In this document: one piece after another, positions 3,143-51,432 of the stretch
How positions within the stretch are numbered: the first letter of the stretch is position 1
Layout: each line of letters opens with the position of its first letter
IMG/VR virus record: IMGVR_UViG_2563367002_000003
Origin: a virus
Taxonomy: Duplodnaviria; Heunggongvirae; Uroviricota; Caudoviricetes
Length of the DNA stretch: 52,323 nucleotides
Strand: one strand, 5' to 3'
Notes under the pieces: generated by a model
Seen by the model: the letters and a program-made list of their open reading frames with translations, nothing else
Told to the model about the DNA's origin: nothing
Database searches by the model: none
Made by a program: the position numbers and the translations under genes

Positions 3143-3548
3143 TAACATAGTAGGAAAAATAACACAGATAACACCACTGGTGCCATTTTGATAAGGCACC
3201 AATCAACTAAAGAGAAGAACTATTTTCAATATTACATTCTTTAAAATGTCATCCAAAGCTTCGCTATTTGAATAATGAAGAAGAAAAATGCTCTCAAGCC
3301 AGCTATAGCTTAAAACAAAGTACGCACTCTTGGGAGTTAAAGTCCCGAATCCCGGTACTTAAGTTGATAACTATTCTCAAATAAAAATAATAAAGTGTTA
3401 TTGTATATATTCTGTAGCACTACAATTTTTATACGTAAAAACATCAAGTGTTAGTTATTTTAAAAAATATAAACTTTAAGTATTGACTTGCACACAAAAT
3501 ATAGTATCTACTTAAATGTATAACTAAAAAAATAAAGGAGTAAATACC

Positions 3549-4130
3549 ATGATAGAAAATAAGATACAAACTGAAGTAAAGAAATCAAGAAGAGGTCTCC
3601 CACGTCATACTAAAAACCCATTTCTTAATGATACAAGTCTACATACAAAAACTGGCGTCAGACGTATTACTACAGGAAAAGATCGATTAGCATTAGTTAA
3701 TGAGAGTACGGGAGAACAAGTTGGTAATGGTGGTTTCTTTCAGTCTATGGAAGTAGACAAGACACAGTTTGTGAAGCTTTATGTGGATGGCGTATCAGCT
3801 ATTGAGGGTTTATCCTCATCCGGTAAGAAAGTATTCAAGATACTGTATCTTGCTATCAGAGATAATAAAGATACAGATACGATATTAATGTCATTCGATA
3901 TTGTTGATCAAGATATCGTGAAAATATCAAGAACTACTTATTTCAAAGGTATGAAAGAACTTGCTGACAAGAAATTTATTGCTGAGACCATGATACAGAA
4001 CTATTATTTTATTAATCCAGACTATATGTTTAATGGTGATCGTTTAACTTTCATGAAAACTTATTACTTGAAGGACAAAAAAACTAAAACTAAAGAGAAC
4101 AAAATTAATTGCCAAGGCAAAACACAGTAG
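3549..4130 (+). CDS. hypothetical protein, possibly DNA-binding
   Basis: 193-aa ORF; strong SD AAAGGAG 8 nt before ATG at 3549; sits at the end of a 1.3-kb AT-rich intergenic region containing the palindromic repeats; function unknown. Confidence 0.6.
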   Translation: MIENKIQTEVKKSRRGLPRHTKNPFLNDTSLHTKTGVRRITTGKDRLALVNESTGEQVGNGGFFQSMEVDKTQFVKLYVDGVSAIEGLSSSGKKVFKILYLAIRDNKDTDTILMSFDIVDQDIVKISRTTYFKGMKELADKKFIAETMIQNYYFINPDYMFNGDRLTFMKTYYLKDKKTKTKENKINCQGKTQ

Positions 4131-4214
4131 TTTCAAGAAAGAGATTTTCTCAAGCAACTCCTATCTGAATGATAACTCCATAAAGCCAATGCATTTTAAC
4201 AAACTCCCACCCTA

Positions 4215-4946
4215 CTATAAAAATTGTATAGGGTGATTAAAAAATGAAGCGAAATCGAATGAGAAAACGTTTTTTATATACCAGTTTACAAACTCATATC
4301 TTGGAGAGCTGCTTTTTATCATTGCTGACATATCAATTATATTATGTGTTGATCTACGTAGTTCTGATATATAGAGAACAAAATCAACATGTTCATAATG
4401 TGGATTTTCAACAAGAAAATTAAGTTCTGCCATTACATATTCAGATTCATAAGGCATTATCGATTCATTAAGAATAACAAGTCCACCGACTGCTCTAGGA
4501 ATATTTAAAGATTCCTTTGTTGCTCTAATCTGTCTATTGGAGGTTGCTACAAGATCTTTTATATTTCTATAAGCATAATCCATTATCTTTTTTCTGAAAG
4601 CATCTGAGTCGGGGTGTTTTTGAATCAATTCCTCAATATGAACCCTACCGAACCAACTTCTTTTAAGCCATTCATCAGTCTTAGCTAGCTCATTAATTTT
4701 TTCATTTATTAAATCAGTTCTGTCATTTGTGAGTAATTTTTGCTCTAAAATAACATCGTTATTAAATAACAAATAATCTGCCATTTTCGAACTAGAGCCA
4801 TCGTCTTTTTTGAAATCATCCTTCATATCGTCCAATACTATATTATTTTTCTTAGATCGAATAAAATCAAGAAACCTTTTATCTATAGAATCCATCTTTC
4901 CTACCTTCAGTTTTATTTCATCGTCCCGAGCCTGATGATACACCAT
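4215..4946 (-). CDS. hypothetical protein
   Basis: 243-aa AT-rich ORF; alternative in-frame ATG at 4895 has GAAGGTAGGAAAG upstream; no family recognised. Confidence 0.5.
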   Translation of the reverse strand: MVYHQARDDEIKLKVGKMDSIDKRFLDFIRSKKNNIVLDDMKDDFKKDDGSSSKMADYLLFNNDVILEQKLLTNDRTDLINEKINELAKTDEWLKRSWFGRVHIEELIQKHPDSDAFRKKIMDYAYRNIKDLVATSNRQIRATKESLNIPRAVGGLVILNESIMPYESEYVMAELNFLVENPHYEHVDFVLYISELRRSTHNIIDMSAMIKSSSPRYEFVNWYIKNVFSFDFASFFNHPIQFL

Positions 4947-5119
4947 GTCATTTGTCTCTTACAACATTATTAATGTATTAAGCATGGCCATAATAAACAA
5001 CAAAAAAACATTGGCGAGACAAATCAACAGAAATAAACATTGCTGCAAACGGTTAATTTGACACTTACACCATATCTCGTAATATAAATATATCCACTAT
5101 TTTATCCACGAGGTTTTAT

Positions 5120-5599
5120 ATGAGAAAAGTAAAAACAGACAACAGTGATTTAATCGAATATGTAAATACAGTTAAAGAACTAAAAAATCACATTCCAATA
5201 GAAGAATACAGAAATGAATATCGTAAACTGCGTTCTGATGATATTCCATTGGTTAAGGCGCAAAAATTTAAATCTGCCCATACCGAAGTTCGCAGGTTGG
5301 AAAAAAAGAGAGAATCTCTTATTGAATACTTTATTGACGAGTTAAATCCCATCAGCAGTTCAAAAGCTAACACATCAGCAAGATCAACTGGTAATCTCGA
5401 TTTATTTAACGAACGCGTGTTATACCGTAAGGCCATTTCAGAAAAGAGCGATGAAGAAATAGTAGCCTTGGTCATAAAACAACGTACAGAAGCCGCTGTT
5501 GAGTTCCAACGTTCAATTGAACAGAGTCTTGAGCAACTATCTCGTATCTCGTCAGAGTTCGAACCATCAAACCAAAAGCGCAGGAAAATGTCTCTTTAA
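5120..5599 (+). CDS. hypothetical protein
   Basis: 159-aa ORF; GAGG 8 nt upstream of ATG at 5120; charged, likely helical; no family recognised. Confidence 0.5.
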   Translation: MRKVKTDNSDLIEYVNTVKELKNHIPIEEYRNEYRKLRSDDIPLVKAQKFKSAHTEVRRLEKKRESLIEYFIDELNPISSSKANTSARSTGNLDLFNERVLYRKAISEKSDEEIVALVIKQRTEAAVEFQRSIEQSLEQLSRISSEFEPSNQKRRKMSL

Positions 5600-5757
5600 A
5601 ACGACTCTATGCTATTCGTGTGAAATGTGATGTATTAGATTGCTTATGCAATAATGTTTACTATATTATTTACTGACTGTTTTTTTTTGATTTTTCCAAC
5701 AGCACCGTAAGCATTATTTTTATTAATCGCCTATTTTAAAACACCGGATGACATACT

Positions 5758-6162
5758 ATGAGTGAAGCTCTTAAGGCACTGAACAATATTCGTACACTTC
5801 GCGCACAGGCTCGTGAAACAGATCTGGCAACTCTGGAAGAGATGCTGGAAAAACTCACCACAATCGTTGAAGATCGCCGTGAGGAAGAAAATTCAGCCCG
5901 TAAAGAACAAGAAGAACGTCAGGCTAAACTGGAAGCCTTCCGCCAGAAATTGTTAGAAGACGGTATCGATCCTACAGAACTACTCGCTTCAGTTGGTTCA
6001 TCCCAGCCTAAAACCAAATCAACTCGTGCTCCTCGTCCTGCTAAATACAAATATACAGATGAAAACGGTAATGAGCAGACTTGGACGGGTCAGGGCCGTA
6101 CTCCTAAAGCAATCGCCGCTGCTATCGAAGCTGGTAAGACACTGGAAGACTTTGCTATCTAA
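5758..6162 (+). CDS. H-NS family nucleoid-associated protein (horizontally acquired H-NS paralogue, Hfp-like)
   Basis: 134 aa beginning [20 protein letters not shown] and containing TWTGQGRTP, collinear with H-NS/StpA over the full length; lies in the islet next to serU. Confidence 0.9.
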
Positions 6163-34267: not shown

Positions 34268-34344
34268 CTGGCGCGTTGTACTGGATTCGAACCAGTGACC
34301 GATTGCTTAGAAGGCAATTGCTCTGTCCGGTTGAGCTAACAACG
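34268..34344 (-). tRNA. tRNA-Arg (anticodon UCU), phage-encoded
   Basis: 77 nt ending CCA; manual fold gives 7-bp acceptor stem, T-loop GGTTCGAATCC, anticodon loop CTTCTAA; closely resembles host argU. Confidence 0.8.
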
Positions 34345-34357
34345 CAGGGTACAGATA

Positions 34358-34434
34358 ATGGACCGCCATCGAGGACTCGAACCCCGCGCAACCAGCTTCG
34401 AAGGCTGGTGCTCTATCCTGATGAGCTAATGGCG
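34358..34434 (-). tRNA. tRNA-Arg (anticodon UCG), phage-encoded
   Basis: 77 nt ending CCA; perfect 7-bp acceptor stem (C1-G72), D-stem GCTC/GAGC, anticodon loop CTTCGAA, T-loop TTCGAGT. Confidence 0.7.
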
Positions 34435-34441
34435 GTATGTG

Positions 34442-34517
34442 ATGGTGGCCCTTGCTGGATTTGAACCAGCGACCTGGCGATTATGAGTCGCTCGCTCTCA
34501 CCTCTGAGCTAAAGGGC
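34442..34517 (-). tRNA. tRNA with CAU anticodon, ileX-like (tRNA-Ile2 read as AUA after lysidine modification, or Met)
   Basis: 76 nt ending CCA; near-identical to host ileX in acceptor, anticodon (loop CTCATAA) and T arms. Confidence 0.75.
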
Positions 34518-34650
34518 CGGGCGCAGGATAATAACGTTACGAAATCAATGTTGCAAGCATTCAAAAATCACCTGGTTAAAAATCACCCTTAGCTCCTCCA
34601 CCAGCGCATTCACCATGTCTATCCGAGATAAGTGGCACAAAAAAACCCGC

Positions 34651-37222: not shown

Positions 37223-38368
37223 TTATTTTTGTTTTATGGTAAATGAAATAACATTGTCAGAATGAATCATATCTGATTCTTTAAATCGTGTAATTGCAGA
37301 TAACTCATTTAAAGGAAGAGCAAAGATATCAGTTAACTCAGTTACCTTTATGATTGAATGCTTATCAAGAAGTAAAAGTAACTTATTAAGTAACTCAGGC
37401 TCTTCTTTTGGGATTGCATCATCTAACGGCTCCCTACGATGGAATGGCGCTAATTGCTTAAATATATAGCTTTTCTGATTATCGCTAATTAACTTAAGGC
37501 TATGACTCCTCATGGCAATACTACCGATAGATGTAATCCAACGTAGTTTTAATCGTTCTAACGCTGATAAATTTGGACTATAAAATTCACGCCCGAAAGT
37601 CGTGGCTGGCATTAAAAAGCTGGAGGCAAAATAATCGGCCTGCAACTCCACTAGGTCGAATAATTCTTTATCATTCAGGTAGTCATCCTCCACTGCCCTA
37701 TGCATAATTAAATGGCCAAGTTCATGAGCAAGACTAAATCGCATGCGAACAGCCGTCTTCGAGCTATCTAACATAATTAAAGGCCGCCCATTATGCCAGA
37801 ACGAAAAGGCATCAACTTTCTCACCAGAAGGTAAATGAGAAACCACGATTCCTTTATTTTCAACAAGTCTAGTTAAATTGAGTATTGGACCATCACCTAA
37901 CCCCCAAAAACGCCTTAATTGGGTGGACATATCCTCAATATCAGATAGAGACAGAACCTCAAAATCAATAATATCGAATTCAGGCAGAACCACATCTGGT
38001 AATTGAGCATATTTTAGACATTCATCCAATATTAATGCCGCCCAACGCCCACGTGTTTTCCCTGTAACTCGAGCCTTTTTGGTCGCAGTTGAACGACTTC
38101 TAAAATGAATCGCCCCCTCCAGAGATGGAGAAGCACTGGAGGCTAAGAAAAATCGTTCTGGAAATCCTAACACCTTGGCTATTGCAGAAAGTGTATCAGC
38201 AGAGGGAGACTTCAACCCCTTCTCAAATGACGAAATAGCTTGTCTTGAAATATTGAGCACTCTGGCAAGTTCAGCCATCGTCAACCCTTTTGCCTCTCTT
38301 GCCTCCTCAAGGCGACGAGGATTAAACGATTTATCAGTAAATGGTGTTTGTGCGATATTCATGCTCAT
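37223..38368 (-). CDS. fused HTH-XRE DNA-binding / ImmA-IrrE-type zinc metallopeptidase regulator
   Basis: 381 aa; N-terminal HTH (LTMAELARVLNISRQAISSFEKG); HEXXH motif HELGHLIMH near aa 215; AT-rich; ATGA overlap with upstream gene. Confidence 0.75.
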   Translation of the reverse strand: MSMNIAQTPFTDKSFNPRRLEEAREAKGLTMAELARVLNISRQAISSFEKGLKSPSADTLSAIAKVLGFPERFFLASSASPSLEGAIHFRSRSTATKKARVTGKTRGRWAALILDECLKYAQLPDVVLPEFDIIDFEVLSLSDIEDMSTQLRRFWGLGDGPILNLTRLVENKGIVVSHLPSGEKVDAFSFWHNGRPLIMLDSSKTAVRMRFSLAHELGHLIMHRAVEDDYLNDKELFDLVELQADYFASSFLMPATTFGREFYSPNLSALERLKLRWITSIGSIAMRSHSLKLISDNQKSYIFKQLAPFHRREPLDDAIPKEEPELLNKLLLLLDKHSIIKVTELTDIFALPLNELSAITRFKESDMIHSDNVISFTIKQK

Positions 38369-38979
38369 GATTGCTGTGATTTAATTATTTGTTCGGTAAG
38401 AATCTTGATTTTATCTTCAATCTCAGAATCCACATTTTCTGCTTCAACTTCTACCATCGTCATAATTGGTAAAGACTCAGTATAAAGAATCCCGTAATTA
38501 TCCGAAGAAGGAACAGTTAAATTCAGTTTGGACAAGTGCTGATTACTGCCATCATGTAACATATAAACATGTCCACCAGACGCTCTCCCATCCAGGGAGT
38601 CGGCATTTTCATCCCCAAAATTCAATTCATAATTTTGATTAGCGTAAACAGCTCTATACAATGCCTGCTTAGGAAGTGGCGCATTACCCGATAAATGATG
38701 TGCCGTCATTTTCCAGTTGTTCGAGTGAATCGCAATGTGTTTACAATTTTTAGCAGCATTGCTACCGACTTCAAAATCCAGCCCCACACGCTTAGCCGCA
38801 TTCTCAAGCAATGCATCGGCATAAAACCAGCGCAAATATGACTGTGCTTGAGCCCAAAAAGAACCAAACTCTTTTGCCTTCATATGCGAATGAAGATAAG
38901 CCTGTGCTAACGCGATCGAAAGCTCTTTGCGGCACTCCTTGTCATATGCTTCTAACAACTGTTGAGATAAATTCTGCAT
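38365..38979 (-). CDS. hypothetical protein, upstream partner of the HTH-ImmA gene
   Basis: 204 aa; AAGGA upstream of ATG at 38979; AT-rich; no family recognised. Confidence 0.6.
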   Translation of the reverse strand: MQNLSQQLLEAYDKECRKELSIALAQAYLHSHMKAKEFGSFWAQAQSYLRWFYADALLENAAKRVGLDFEVGSNAAKNCKHIAIHSNNWKMTAHHLSGNAPLPKQALYRAVYANQNYELNFGDENADSLDGRASGGHVYMLHDGSNQHLSKLNLTVPSSDNYGILYTESLPIMTMVEVEAENVDSEIEDKIKILTEQIIKSQQS

Positions 38980-39145: not shown

Positions 39146-39301
39146 TTACTCCTCAGGTTCGTAAGCTGTGAAGACAGCGACCTCCGTCTGGCCGGTTCGG
39201 ATTCGTACCTCGCAGAGGTCTTTCCTCGTTACCAGTGCCGTCACAATGACGGTTAAACAGATGACGATCAGGGCGATTAGCATCGCCTTTTGCTGCTTCA
39301 T
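39146..39301 (-). CDS. hokD: Hok/Gef-family type I toxin (HokD/RelF-like)
   Basis: 51 aa from ATG at 39301: MKQQKAMLIALIVICLTVIVTALVTRKDLCEVRIRTGQTEVAVFTAYEPEE, matching HokD as I recall it; longer in-frame upstream ORF to 39358 is the mok-like leader. Confidence 0.8.
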   Translation of the reverse strand: MKQQKAMLIALIVICLTVIVTALVTRKDLCEVRIRTGQTEVAVFTAYEPEE

Positions 39302-39578: not shown

Positions 39579-42377
39579 TCAGGCACCGTGACATTTTTTG
39601 TACTTTATTCCCGAGCCACAGGGGCATTGTTCATTCCGGCCGACCGCACCAAAAACTTCAGTTAATTTAGTCTTTGCTGCTTTATGGGCAAGCTGTACGA
39701 TGTAATTTGATTGATTTTGGATTTCTTGACGCTGTACACCTGTGAGGCCTTCGATATAGGGAGCAAGGCGCTGCATTTCGACATCAGCTGCTTTATGCTG
39801 ACCCGATAGTGCCAATATGACTGCGTACTGGCTTCGAACCTGAATCAGTCGGTGTACTAGACCTGCCTCATTGACAACCGGCAGGACATGTTGCTCCATG
39901 ACTTCCTTGGCACCGTCGTAATCCTTTATGGCAACAAACTCATCCGCCAGATCTTGGCCCACCCTAACCATGGATTCCGGGGCCATGGCCAGATTGTAGA
40001 ACTTCATCGAATGAATACGCAGTAATGGTGACAGTTTTCCCTGCGCATCACGAATTCTGGCCAGCAACTCCAGAGCATCAGCCATATGTTTAAAGTGTTC
40101 CTGCATATTTTCGGAATGATTAATAGTTTTCCATAATGCGTCGGCGTTTTTTCCTATGACATCAGCAGGTGTGATACCAAATAAAGAATAGTACCCTTGT
40201 ATAACATTACAGCTTAATGTTTCAGCATCCTTGAGTTTTTTTAATCTCCAGAGTGCAATGGCATGGTTGTAGTCAAAGATGCGTTTATGTTCTTCATCTG
40301 GGAGTTGGGGGCGGACTTCCTGTGCCAGCTTTTGAACTTCTCGTGCATCATTGCTTTCTGCCGAAAATAACATTCGTTTCATTGCATAGGCCATCTCTTC
40401 TTGATAGCCGAACTTGTGCTCCGCAAGTAAAGCTCCCATGATGTTTAACCTCTGAGCAATGTGGTCGGATATTCCGTCTTTAAGCTCAACGAAAACAAGG
40501 CCATCCAATGCCCAGAATTTATGAACAGGTCCCAATAAGTCCGATGTTGCAGCACGCTCCAAGCTTGCAAGAATGTCGACCGTCACGCCCATCTCATAAA
40601 ACATTTCTTGGCCTGAGAGTTCGATCAACGTCGTGACATCATTGAGCTTAATATAAAGTTGAGTCAACAACGATAACCGTTTTGTATTGCGGGTATTATG
40701 AAGACTTTCAACTAAAAGGTCTTTCAGCGCTAGTAGCGCTTTGTTCGATATACCCTGATCCATCAGTTCCAGATGTTGCAGTCCTAGCCCCCTGACAGCA
40801 TCATGTACCTTCAGGGTCTGGTTTCCATAAATTTCAATAGTGCCAGTAGCGCGCATTTTCCTAATTAAAGAAGCCGCACTGCTTGGTGAAATGTTCAGCG
40901 AATTGATTAGGAGCGTAGAAATCTCTTCGCGACTCAGCCCTACGTCAGAGAGACTGAACAATGCCAGCGCGCTCTGAAGTAGTGATTCAAATCCCTGAAA
41001 TACACGTGACAGAATAATTTCTTGGGCGGTTTCCGCAGTATGGGTTTGTTGCTGGAGTTCAGCACACAGAGCATCGACACTACGCTCATAATCAGAAACG
41101 GCGATTTTTGCGGCGCTCTCTACATACAGGGGAAGACCACCAGTGTAAGCCCGTAGCTGCTCGTATCCCATAGCGGTGGCAAATCCTCCGATATCGTTTA
41201 CAACGACAGCTACCGTATCGAGATTCCATCCCTGCAGGCCCTCGCGCTGTAGCCCCGTCATGACCTCCAGTTCGCGAACGTTTTCGTGAGGCTGGCACAA
41301 CAGCACAAAACGAATATGTGTAGTTGCATTCAGAACATCCCGTAGATTTTCCGCAGGTACACGATGGGCGTTATCCAGAACCAGCACCAAGGTGGTACCC
41401 TGCTCTTTCAGGTAGGTATCAAAACTCCTAAGAGCCTCAAAACCACTGGCACCGGGGAGCAAAATCCTGCGCAAACCGTCTTGGTCACGGGCTGTAAATC
41501 TAGCAGCCATCTCGCGCACCAGCGTACTGGCCAGAGCTGGACCGGGAAGATCACCGGTGTCGTAATAAGCACAAAGTGCAGTGGAGTGTAATGCGGCCTG
41601 TGCGGCCCAAGCTGTCTTGCCTGCACCTGAGAGTCCACAAAGGATACGGATCCGCTCACCAGATGTGAGAGAAGGTTCTTCGTTTTGTGGGCGGTACAGT
41701 GCTGGTGGTGCAGGAAAGTCCTGTAGCTGAACGATCAACTGTTCAAATAGTTCAGTAAGTTCCTCCGTGAAAAACGTATGTTGTCCATTGGTATCGCCTC
41801 CGGTGGCGGCAAGCTGAACCAACCCTGCTAACTTCCAAATCAAGGATTCTGGGGACAATAGTGAAAATTTCAGCTTTTCTGCTTCTGCGATACACCATGT
41901 GGCCGCATCAGCCAGAGTACTCCATGCGGGCGGAAGTGCCGGATGACGTCCAGCTGTCGACTGGGGCCAGACAATAAGAACATCAGAAGGAAGCTTTTTA
42001 TCGTCAATCATCTTCTGAAGCAGCGGTCCAGGCGCCTGGTTTACAATAATCACAAAAGAAGCCACCCCTTCGCGGTTTGCCGAAGTATGCTCATTTCTGA
42101 GCTTTACAAATCGCTCCAGAGCCCCCGACACATCGTTGGGCATAATAGGCTTTGAACGGGTTTTAACCTGAATGTAGAGACGTTCCTGTTTGGATTTCAG
42201 CTCAATATCCTCATCAAGCTCGACAGTTACTGAGTCCATAGCAGCCCTCTGCGCCAAAAGTAAGCAGCCTACAGCGTAAAGATGCTGGTAAAGGAACCCC
42301 CGGTGTACCGCTTCGATACGCACCAACTGCACAGGATCCAGTACGTCCAGATTTTGTTTGTTTTCACTTCCCCACAT
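39579..42377 (-). CDS. STAND-like P-loop NTPase, three-part architecture with C-terminal SEC-C zinc motif; candidate antiviral (Avs-like) protein
   Basis: 932 aa; AAGGA SD 8 nt before ATG at 42377; Walker A GLSGAGKT and Walker B-like LVLVLDNAH; N-terminal ~200 aa with D..E.K-like pattern (VELDEDIELK ... YIQVKT); long helical C-terminal region; ends CPCGSGIKYKKCHGA. Confidence 0.7.
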   Translation of the reverse strand: MWGSENKQNLDVLDPVQLVRIEAVHRGFLYQHLYAVGCLLLAQRAAMDSVTVELDEDIELKSKQERLYIQVKTRSKPIMPNDVSGALERFVKLRNEHTSANREGVASFVIIVNQAPGPLLQKMIDDKKLPSDVLIVWPQSTAGRHPALPPAWSTLADAATWCIAEAEKLKFSLLSPESLIWKLAGLVQLAATGGDTNGQHTFFTEELTELFEQLIVQLQDFPAPPALYRPQNEEPSLTSGERIRILCGLSGAGKTAWAAQAALHSTALCAYYDTGDLPGPALASTLVREMAARFTARDQDGLRRILLPGASGFEALRSFDTYLKEQGTTLVLVLDNAHRVPAENLRDVLNATTHIRFVLLCQPHENVRELEVMTGLQREGLQGWNLDTVAVVVNDIGGFATAMGYEQLRAYTGGLPLYVESAAKIAVSDYERSVDALCAELQQQTHTAETAQEIILSRVFQGFESLLQSALALFSLSDVGLSREEISTLLINSLNISPSSAASLIRKMRATGTIEIYGNQTLKVHDAVRGLGLQHLELMDQGISNKALLALKDLLVESLHNTRNTKRLSLLTQLYIKLNDVTTLIELSGQEMFYEMGVTVDILASLERAATSDLLGPVHKFWALDGLVFVELKDGISDHIAQRLNIMGALLAEHKFGYQEEMAYAMKRMLFSAESNDAREVQKLAQEVRPQLPDEEHKRIFDYNHAIALWRLKKLKDAETLSCNVIQGYYSLFGITPADVIGKNADALWKTINHSENMQEHFKHMADALELLARIRDAQGKLSPLLRIHSMKFYNLAMAPESMVRVGQDLADEFVAIKDYDGAKEVMEQHVLPVVNEAGLVHRLIQVRSQYAVILALSGQHKAADVEMQRLAPYIEGLTGVQRQEIQNQSNYIVQLAHKAAKTKLTEVFGAVGRNEQCPCGSGIKYKKCHGA

Positions 42378-42599
42378 GACCTATTCCTTGAGCTATTTGT
42401 TTGACGGACTCACATTATTACTTCAATGTAATCAATTGAACTTGAATTATAATTAAAAGAGGCAAAGAAAAGTCCTCCGTTGATTAATACAAACTAACGA
42501 TACCAACGTTCACCTGGCTCAAAGCTGACAACCAAACTAGGTCTGGGACTGTGCCATCGAAGTGTCAATTAATATCTGAACTAATGCTCTTTAATTTCG

Positions 42600-51342: not shown

Positions 51343-51404
51343 TGGCGGAGAGAGGGGGATTTGAACCCCCGGTGGAGTTGCCCCCACTCCGGTTTTCGAG
51401 ACCG
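51343..51404 (-). repeat. att core repeat (proximal copy, within serU 3' end)
   Basis: 62 bp matching 9271-9332 except for two compensatory substitutions. Confidence 0.8.
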
Positions 51405-51432
51405 GTCCGTTCAGCCGCTCCGGCATCTCTCC
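51343..51432 (-). tRNA. serU: tRNA-Ser (anticodon CGA), serU; 3' portion is the phage-derived att core
   Basis: 90 nt, GGAGAGATGCCGGAGCGGCTGAACGGACCGGTCTCGAAAACCGG ... CCCCCTCTCTCCGCCA; long variable arm; anticodon loop CTCGAAA. Confidence 0.9.

Follow-up and report, generated by a model that had tools for sequence, protein, structure and literature searches.

A candidate Avs-type STAND receptor with a Cap4-type nuclease domain and a SecA-like SEC-C tail, carried as cargo by an Escherichia coli lambdoid prophage

The STAND NTPase superfamily, reportedly defined by Leipe, Koonin and Aravind in 2004, is recognised by two defining motifs, the GxP motif and a winged-helix histidine in an MHD-like position. 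Two of its antiviral receptors, Avs3 (SeAvs3, PDB 8DGC) and Avs7 (SeAvs7), are built from a Cap4 nuclease, a STAND module and a tetratricopeptide repeat (TPR) sensor. According to a 2026 bioRxiv preprint (Lee, ..., Koonin, Gao; 10.64898/2026.01.04.697583; below, Lee et al.), in which 589 STAND clades were delimited, 198 of them associated with defence, the Cap4 domains of Avs3, Avs4 and Avs7 tetramerise and cut double-stranded DNA (dsDNA) after ligand- and ATP-driven assembly, and the protein recognised by Avs7 is the major capsid protein, EF-Tu serving as structural cofactor. About 30 sensor clusters were cloned in that work; triggers were assigned to Avs8 and Avs10-21, and Avs22-24 were active with no trigger found. 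The present analysis concerns a gene of the same general build in a Caudoviricetes sequence of 52,323 nucleotides, IMG/VR record IMGVR_UViG_2563367002_000003 (this whole stretch of DNA is called the window below). An earlier note, made from the sequence alone, had described the gene as a STAND-like NTPase with a nuclease-like N terminus and a C-terminal SEC-C motif, located in the accessory region of a prophage.

The gene is an uninterrupted open reading frame (ORF) of 932 codons with an ATG start, at positions 39579-42377 of the window; these boundaries agree with the earlier note, to which the minus strand can now be added. A chance ORF was ruled out, because more than 900 homologue clusters share about the same length. 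By analogy with described receptors, the product is probably, at a rough probability of 75%, a single-protein antiviral NLR-like receptor of the Avs type with a Cap4-nuclease effector, carried as prophage cargo. The parts of the protein are listed here, with conservation taken from an alignment of 66 sequences whose identities range from 81 to 28%.

39579..42377, minus strand: whole ORF (932 aa plus stop), Cap4-nuclease, STAND NTPase, TPR-like sensor and SEC-C tail
41733..42344, minus strand: Cap4-type PD-(D/E)xK nuclease, predicted effector, residues 12-215
42162..42215, minus strand: nuclease catalytic motif D55-x-D57 ... Q70-x-K72, invariant in the 66 homologues, pattern in 216 of 218
41223..41657, minus strand: nucleotide-binding domain (NBD), residues 241-385, from Pfam AAA_22 and AAA_16, the alignment and identity with the catalogued seed #193 (see below)
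41613-41636, minus strand: Walker A, residues 248-255, GLSGAGKT
41370-41390, minus strand: Walker B, residues 330-336, D335 invariant and N336 in at least 90%
41028..41222, minus strand: helical domain (HD), residues 386-450, with the STAND GxP motif TGGLPL, from the alignment, the AlphaFold2 (AF2) model and the 6mfv profile match (positions 236-544)
40758..41027, minus strand: winged-helix domain (WHD), residues 451-540, with His525 (VHDA, MHD-like position), from the alignment, AF2 and Foldseek
39651..40757, minus strand: TPR-like all-helical sensor, residues 541-909
39582..39650, minus strand: short linker and SecA-like SEC-C knuckle, residues 910-932 (C918, C920, S922, C929, H930), from PF02810 and PDB peptides

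The N-terminal region had been compared in the earlier note to a PD-(D/E)xK nuclease, and this comparison held. The Pfam model Cap4_nuclease (PF14130 / DUF4297) scored 27.1 bits against a gathering cut-off of 26.2, the aligned part being limited to residues 25-77, and the motifs VELDEDIELK and YIQVKT, which span residues 52-73, contain the invariant D55, D57, Q70 and K72. The D.D...Q.K pattern was kept in 216 of the 218 full-length family members. A score above the threshold and a conserved catalytic set of the PD-(D/E)xK type place the domain in the Cap4 group. The same fold, with an active site of the D...QxK type, is found in Cap4 (CBASS), LmuA (Lamassu), HamA (Hachiman) and DUF4297 (DUF4297-HerA). 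In those systems control is exerted by SAVED and cyclic nucleotides, by the SMC-like LmuB, by the HamB helicase and by HerA, whereas here the nuclease is fused to a STAND switch and has no partner gene.

The STAND NTPase module occupies residues 241-540, and Pfam assigned AAA_22 and AAA_16 to residues 239-364. Both P-loop motifs singled out in the earlier note were invariant at their key residues, namely G251, G253 and K254 in Walker A (GLSGAGKT, 248-255) and D335 in the Walker B-like sequence LVLVLDNAH (330-338). In the GxP motif TGGLPL (412-417), P416 is invariant and T412, G414 and L417 are kept in at least 90% of the homologues, as is the winged-helix H525 (VHDA). The AF2 model was confident (predicted local distance difference test score, pLDDT, 89.3); the motifs of the HD and WHD fall on matching helices and strands, and the C-terminal region is all-helical, in line with the helical, repeat-like character proposed for it. 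In Foldseek searches with this model, the best matches were 6mfv (6e-13), the wheat G10 resistosome (9h2l), CED-4, NRC3/NRC4 and MalT, and ORC/Cdc6 folds ranked below the STAND/NLR proteins. A profile made from the family alignment matched PH0952 (6mfv), a STAND ATPase with a TPR sensor, at E = 1.4e-5 over the whole nucleotide-binding oligomerisation domain (NOD), and gave weak matches to AfsR, HamA and LmuA. PH0952 (6MFV), MalT, CED-4/Apaf-1 and the plant NB-ARC NLRs share the NBD-HD-WHD order, helical repeats, GxP motif and WHD histidine with the protein studied here, but have no nuclease effector and act in transcription, apoptosis or plant immunity.

The profile and structure searches recommended in the earlier note thus found an NTPase core in the predicted fold, with STAND/NLR proteins as the top matches. 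The Walker A/B core, the GxP helical domain, the winged-helix histidine, the NOD fold and the C-terminal repeat sensor are those of the STAND superfamily. Moreover, effector, STAND module and sensor are joined in one polypeptide with a defence-type effector, which is the Avs architecture in the broad sense; the effector-NTPase-sensor order read from the sequence is supported at the levels of sequence, profile and fold.

The family is large. Among the scored candidates, 934 clusters at 90% identity were obtained; at 50% identity, 733 representatives had E <= 1e-3, of which 287 had E <= 1e-30. Nearly all homologues are about 930 aa long and align from end to end, with a fixed architecture. Most of the members with a named source came from Gamma- and Betaproteobacteria (Escherichia, Serratia, Providencia, Klebsiella, Yersinia, Vibrio, Shewanella, Aeromonas, Alteromonas, Pseudomonas, Methylophilaceae and Variovorax), and one 28%-identical member came from a genome of Nannocystaceae (Myxococcota). 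Mean identity to the query was 44-49% in the sensor compared with 49-57% in the catalytic domains; the degree of conservation is therefore similar in the two, in agreement with a ligand that is itself conserved. A full-length homologue, 39.5% identical, was also located at 3171-5993 of MT836905.1, a contig of 8.3 kb from human faeces that is labelled 'Bacteriophage sp.' and carries no annotation, and a partial one on MT836015.1, indicating that the family is phage-borne beyond the E. coli lambdoids.

The genomic context of the homologues supports a defence role. In ten distinct neighbourhoods outside E. coli, analysed within 8 kb as a small sample with no statistical control, defence-type genes were present in eight. 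Gabija-like OLD-TOPRIM/UvrD pairs, AbiH, PIN and AAA_13 genes lie near homologues in Vibrio cholerae, Yersinia and Klebsiella; a CBASS-like E1/E2/JAB gene was found in the Pseudomonas putida neighbourhood, and an HNH gene, an M78 gene with a helix-turn-helix (HTH) domain and Druantia genes in that of Variovorax. A 43%-identical homologue is ringed by type I restriction-modification, HNH, PARIS-like and AbiE genes, and a 33%-identical one, accompanied by HEPN-Toprim and trypsin-like genes, lies where a Mu-like element has its repressor end. No neighbour was conserved across the 11 contexts examined, and therefore the gene is taken to be a single-gene system.

Two arrangements recurred among these neighbours. 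The Gabija-like pair, an AAA_15/OLD-TOPRIM ATPase and a UvrD helicase, stands directly upstream of the homologue in three genera (locus L003, 3754-7778, in V. cholerae; L008, 4511-7655, in Yersinia; L092/L093 in Klebsiella), and in Pseudomonas (L004-L007) an AbiH-like gene begins 60 bp downstream of it. Such recurring neighbours may reflect shared islands or a functional association.

The protein was also compared with catalogued systems. PADLOC-DB 2.0.0, which we take to contain the AVAST models of types I-V (Avs1-Avs5), returned the N terminus of LmuA (5.7e-7), weak matches to DUF4297 and HamA, and the SEC-C-containing models E2, E1-E2 and PDC-S12; for the gene pair downstream, described below, it returned RmrA and RmrT. 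No whole-protein family was obtained from PADLOC, NCBIfam or PHROGs. The statement of the earlier note that the protein could not be placed in a named family therefore holds for PADLOC and Pfam, yet the family is already a defence-STAND seed of 2026: in Table S1 of Lee et al. (656 seed NTPase domains), entry #193 (WP_021564393.1, Escherichia, residues 227-435) is identical in sequence to our protein (10.64898/2026.01.04.697583). Because of this identity, the family already counts among the catalogued candidates for defence STANDs and formed part of the phylogeny of 589 clades. The seeds combine defence STANDs predicted earlier with sequences retrieved by BLAST, the queries being STANDs already known together with four effectors (Cap4, Mrr, Trypco2 and MBL), and Brenes & Laub 2025 is cited there for prophage-encoded STANDs; SEC-C is absent from the main text (10.64898/2026.01.04.697583). 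The accession WP_021564393.1 occurred in no searchable text of the literature examined, and no mention of such a protein was found in DefensePredictor, a domain-centric NAR 2026 paper, a modularity-network preprint or Kaur et al. 2020.

Compared with SeAvs3 the protein is short, 932 aa against 2,028, with a sensor of only about 370 aa, and its SEC-C tail has no described counterpart in the Avs3 and Avs7 families. It is not Avs7-like in size either, and no sequence hit was obtained. The kind of protein is known, but this member of it is new or, at the least, not visibly characterised; it matches none of Avs1-5, and only its SecA-like tail is unusual.

Several observations weigh against its assignment as an Avs-type receptor. 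No Avs/AVAST model of PADLOC-DB 2.0.0 was matched even at E <= 1, and sequence searches of the PDB, by phmmer or with the family profile, did not reach Avs3 or Avs4; therefore, kinship with the characterised Avs families is a matter of architecture and fold only. At the second Walker B position, where Asp/Glu is usual, at least 90% of the family have Asn336, from which we infer that ATP hydrolysis may be weak, slow or absent, favouring a switch driven by binding. No recognisable defence genes were present in the Serratia and Nannocystaceae neighbourhoods (2 of 10). Finally, a sensor of conserved phage proteins that is itself encoded in a prophage must either escape activation by that prophage or withstand it.

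By homology to Avs3, Avs4 and Avs7, an Avs-type receptor of this kind would be expected to act through ligand-induced oligomerisation, DNA degradation and abortive infection. In the uninfected cell, the protein would be monomeric, nucleotide-bound and autoinhibited, with His525 of the WHD stabilising this state. The TPR-like sensor (residues 541-909) would bind a ligand specific to infection, most probably a phage protein that is conserved, and this binding would free the NBD-HD-WHD switch (K254, D335, the GxP at 414-416 and His525), so that the NOD could open, bind ATP and oligomerise. The oligomer would then gather the Cap4 domains (D55, D57, Q70 and K72) into an active dsDNA endonuclease, DNA would be degraded, and infection would be aborted to the benefit of the lysogen population and of the prophage. 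The SEC-C tail would be an accessory, flexibly tethered part, possibly serving in regulation or in docking to a host factor or polyanion.

The end of the protein, CPCGSGIKYKKCHG, had been read as a terminal SEC-C metal-binding motif, and this was borne out. It matched Pfam SEC-C (PF02810) at residues 914-931 with E = 8e-10 and 38.8 bits against a cut-off of 20.4, and C918, C920, S922 and C929 of the knuckle are invariant in the 66-sequence alignment. The pattern CxCxSGx8C[H/C], with its conserved Ser, is the one found in the C-terminal metal-binding domain (MBD) of SecA and in YecA and YchJ, where the knuckle also stands at the extreme C terminus behind a flexible linker, whereas the remainder of the STAND protein is unrelated to these proteins. 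The last 20 residues were identical to an E. coli SecA zinc-domain peptide at 16 of 20 positions, and a single-sequence phmmer search of the PDB with the whole protein matched only SecA and YchJ peptides.

The motif was present in 171 of the 219 full-length members (78%) and, where present, shows the highest conservation of any segment (76% identity). The distance from the position of Q889 to the first Cys varied from 26 to 57 residues across the family, and this stretch is often Pro-rich. Tail-less members are scattered, since a tail-less nearest neighbour was found for only 17 of 49, and most of them end straight after the last helix. The tail thus reads, on its sequence, as an optional and flexibly tethered basic metal-binding knuckle, repeatedly lost and strongly constrained when present; because it has been lost repeatedly, it does not seem to be needed for the core switch. 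Three homologues that lack SEC-C (P0164, P0240 and P0257) have C-terminal tails with 47-50% Lys/Arg, and another (P0110) retains a degenerate remnant, GRNEPGLSQS. The Lys/Arg-rich replacements and the remnant suggest that the job of the tail may be polyanion binding and that the losses are recent. A contig scan with the family alignment produced 80 further loci that were rejected as unrelated SEC-C proteins, one of the two peptide patterns being the ubiquitous SEC-C motif; of the scan loci checked, L076 was SecA itself and L073 contained no family member.

SEC-C also terminates the PADLOC models E2, E1-E2 and PDC-S12 (PDLC00833, 00865, 00870-00872, PDLC04917), as well as phrog_18195, a phage protein family without known function, and the lactococcal protein Rugutis begins with it (PMC11381338). 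The motif therefore recurs among unrelated defence proteins, E2, E1-E2, PDC-S12 and Rugutis. This recurrence was discussed in no paper that we found, and no paper was found that combines SEC-C with STAND or Cap4.

By analogy, one may reasonably guess that the tail docks to a polyanion or to some host factor. The alternative that survives best goes further, in that the protein would still be a defence STAND, but sensing would be indirect, with the tail reading a host factor or state (SecB, the ribosome, a membrane phospholipid, or metal and redox conditions) as a co-sensor or enhancer. Such a tail is a bona fide SecA-like MBD, with the invariant residues, the SecA-peptide identity and the strong constraint given above, and its linker of variable length resembles the C-terminal tail of SecA. 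The SecA MBD binds SecB and ribosomes, and the MBDs of SecA, YecA and YchJ bind Zn or Fe, according to 10.1101/613315. YchJ is described as a factor sensing reactive oxygen species in PMC13377102, and from this we infer a redox role for its SEC-C motifs. Precedents for host factors are EF-Tu for Avs7 and DnaJ for bNACHT25, as given in 10.64898/2026.01.04.697583, and the recurrence of SEC-C in other defence proteins points the same way. However, the tail is missing from 22% of the full-length members, at scattered places in the family, which argues that it is dispensable for the core function, and we consider indirect sensing unlikely. We likewise give no more than an outside chance to a specific role of the knuckle as a co-sensing or localisation module, which would tether the protein to SecB, translating ribosomes or another polyanionic host structure, or would respond to metal or redox state, so that phage proteins would be sampled while being made or host perturbation would aid activation.

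In the prophage, the surroundings of the Avs-type candidate gene agree with its status as cargo. The full gene was found in 16 of 5,426 complete E. coli genomes, every time between a DUF977 gene and hokD, and its annotation in this species goes no further than 'SEC-C metal-binding domain-containing protein'. RefSeq annotation of identical loci gives the lambdoid order Cro/CI, YdaT, replisome organiser, DUF977, STAND gene, hokD, genes for proteins of 204 and 381 aa, DUF968, RusA and Q, and thereby confirms the placement, in the earlier note, in the slot between replication and Q beside hok and a second cargo operon. In related prophages this slot is filled by unrelated small genes, and DUF977 and hokD appear to delimit, as conserved flanks, a hotspot for cargo. 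Prophages with the STAND gene were found integrated at ompW and at tRNA-Ser/mtfA. At the right end of the window an integrase lies next to tRNA-Ser(CGA), within 51343-51432, which indicates that this prophage copy sits at the tRNA-Ser site; strains EC13 and CB7453 have the same cargo region in a prophage at ompW.

A position after replication genes, together with the ORC/Cdc6 fold matches, could point to an accessory factor of prophage replication or recombination, an ORC/Cdc6-like AAA+ loader with a nuclease. This is very improbable. The gene is missing from nearly all related prophages, homologues occur in chromosomal defence islands without phage replication genes, and the STAND-specific GxP motif, WHD histidine and TPR sensor are present, the best fold matches being STAND/NLR proteins and not ORC. 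Moreover, the gene is disrupted by an IS3 element in one E. coli strain.

The two genes downstream of hokD form an overlapping pair on the minus strand (204-aa ORF, 38365-38979; 381-aa ORF, 37223-38368; together 37223-38979 of the window). They matched PADLOC RmrA (HTH and M78 peptidase-like, E 5.5e-102) and RmrT (E 7.5e-10), and the NCBIfam model 'spr1629 family repressor/antitoxin' matched the pair below its cut-off. This RmrTA-like pair is a second cargo of the defence or toxin-antitoxin type, and it is independent of the STAND gene, because the pair was found without the STAND gene (L002) and the STAND gene without the pair (L095). The same observations bear on the proposal that the STAND protein works as part of a Lamassu- or Hachiman-type system of several genes, as its LmuA- and HamA-like N terminus might suggest, or a partner of the RmrTA-like pair or of hokD. 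RmrTA and hokD also occur together without the STAND gene, no adjacent LmuB/SMC, HamB helicase or HerA was present in the 11 contexts examined, and the similarity to LmuA and HamA is limited to the shared Cap4-type nuclease fold; such a partnership is scarcely to be expected.

A signalling STAND with no role in immunity, comparable to MalT or AfsR, or an accessory factor of the Sec pathway, is almost certainly the wrong description, since the matches to MalT, AfsR and PH0952 and the SecA-like tail that would favour it are set against a conserved nuclease as output with no DNA-binding output domain, a SecA match of only about 20 residues with no SecA motor domain, and a gene that is mobile, sporadic and linked to defence islands.

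Upstream, the STAND ORF is separated from the DUF977 gene by an intergenic spacer of 221 bp.

42378..42599, minus strand: upstream intergenic region, AT-richer, with an AAGGA Shine-Dalgarno sequence, from sequence inspection and GC content

The good Shine-Dalgarno sequence and AT-rich upstream region reported in the earlier note were both found again, the former as AAGGA 8-12 nt 5' of the ATG and the latter as a GC content of 0.425 in the spacer against about 0.45-0.53 within the gene. A simple consensus scan of the 221-bp spacer found no strong sigma-70 promoter; independent transcription of the STAND gene from its own spacer is plausible.

Further features of these loci were recorded. The type I toxin gene hokD (39146-39301, minus strand) has one cargo module on either side and borders the variable slot in every related prophage that was examined. 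A tRNA cluster at 34269-34518 of the window comprises Arg(TCT), Arg(TCG) and a tRNA with a CAT anticodon, called Met by ARAGORN and Ile in the identical RefSeq loci. In E. coli NZ_OZ546984.1 (361232-365885), an otherwise 100%-identical gene is split by the IS3-family element ISEc52, and its halves are annotated as 'SEC-C metal-binding domain-containing protein' and 'dsDNA nuclease domain-containing protein'.

The general concept of pattern recognition by an effector-STAND-TPR protein is already established. If the Avs-type assignment is confirmed, a compact (105 kDa) Cap4-nuclease Avs would join the defence cargo of E. coli lambdoid prophages, and the DUF977-hokD-RmrTA slot would be a hotspot that can be mined for further cargo. 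For phage therapy, rare prophage-borne sensors of this kind would help to explain strain-specific resistance. The SEC-C tail offers a cheap, testable handle on a possible recruitment of host factors from the Sec pathway or the ribosome's surroundings by NLR-like sensors of bacteria; if it does act in this way, a new example would be added to the bacterial STANDs that repurpose host factors, and the same may hold for PADLOC E2, E1-E2, PDC-S12 and Rugutis.

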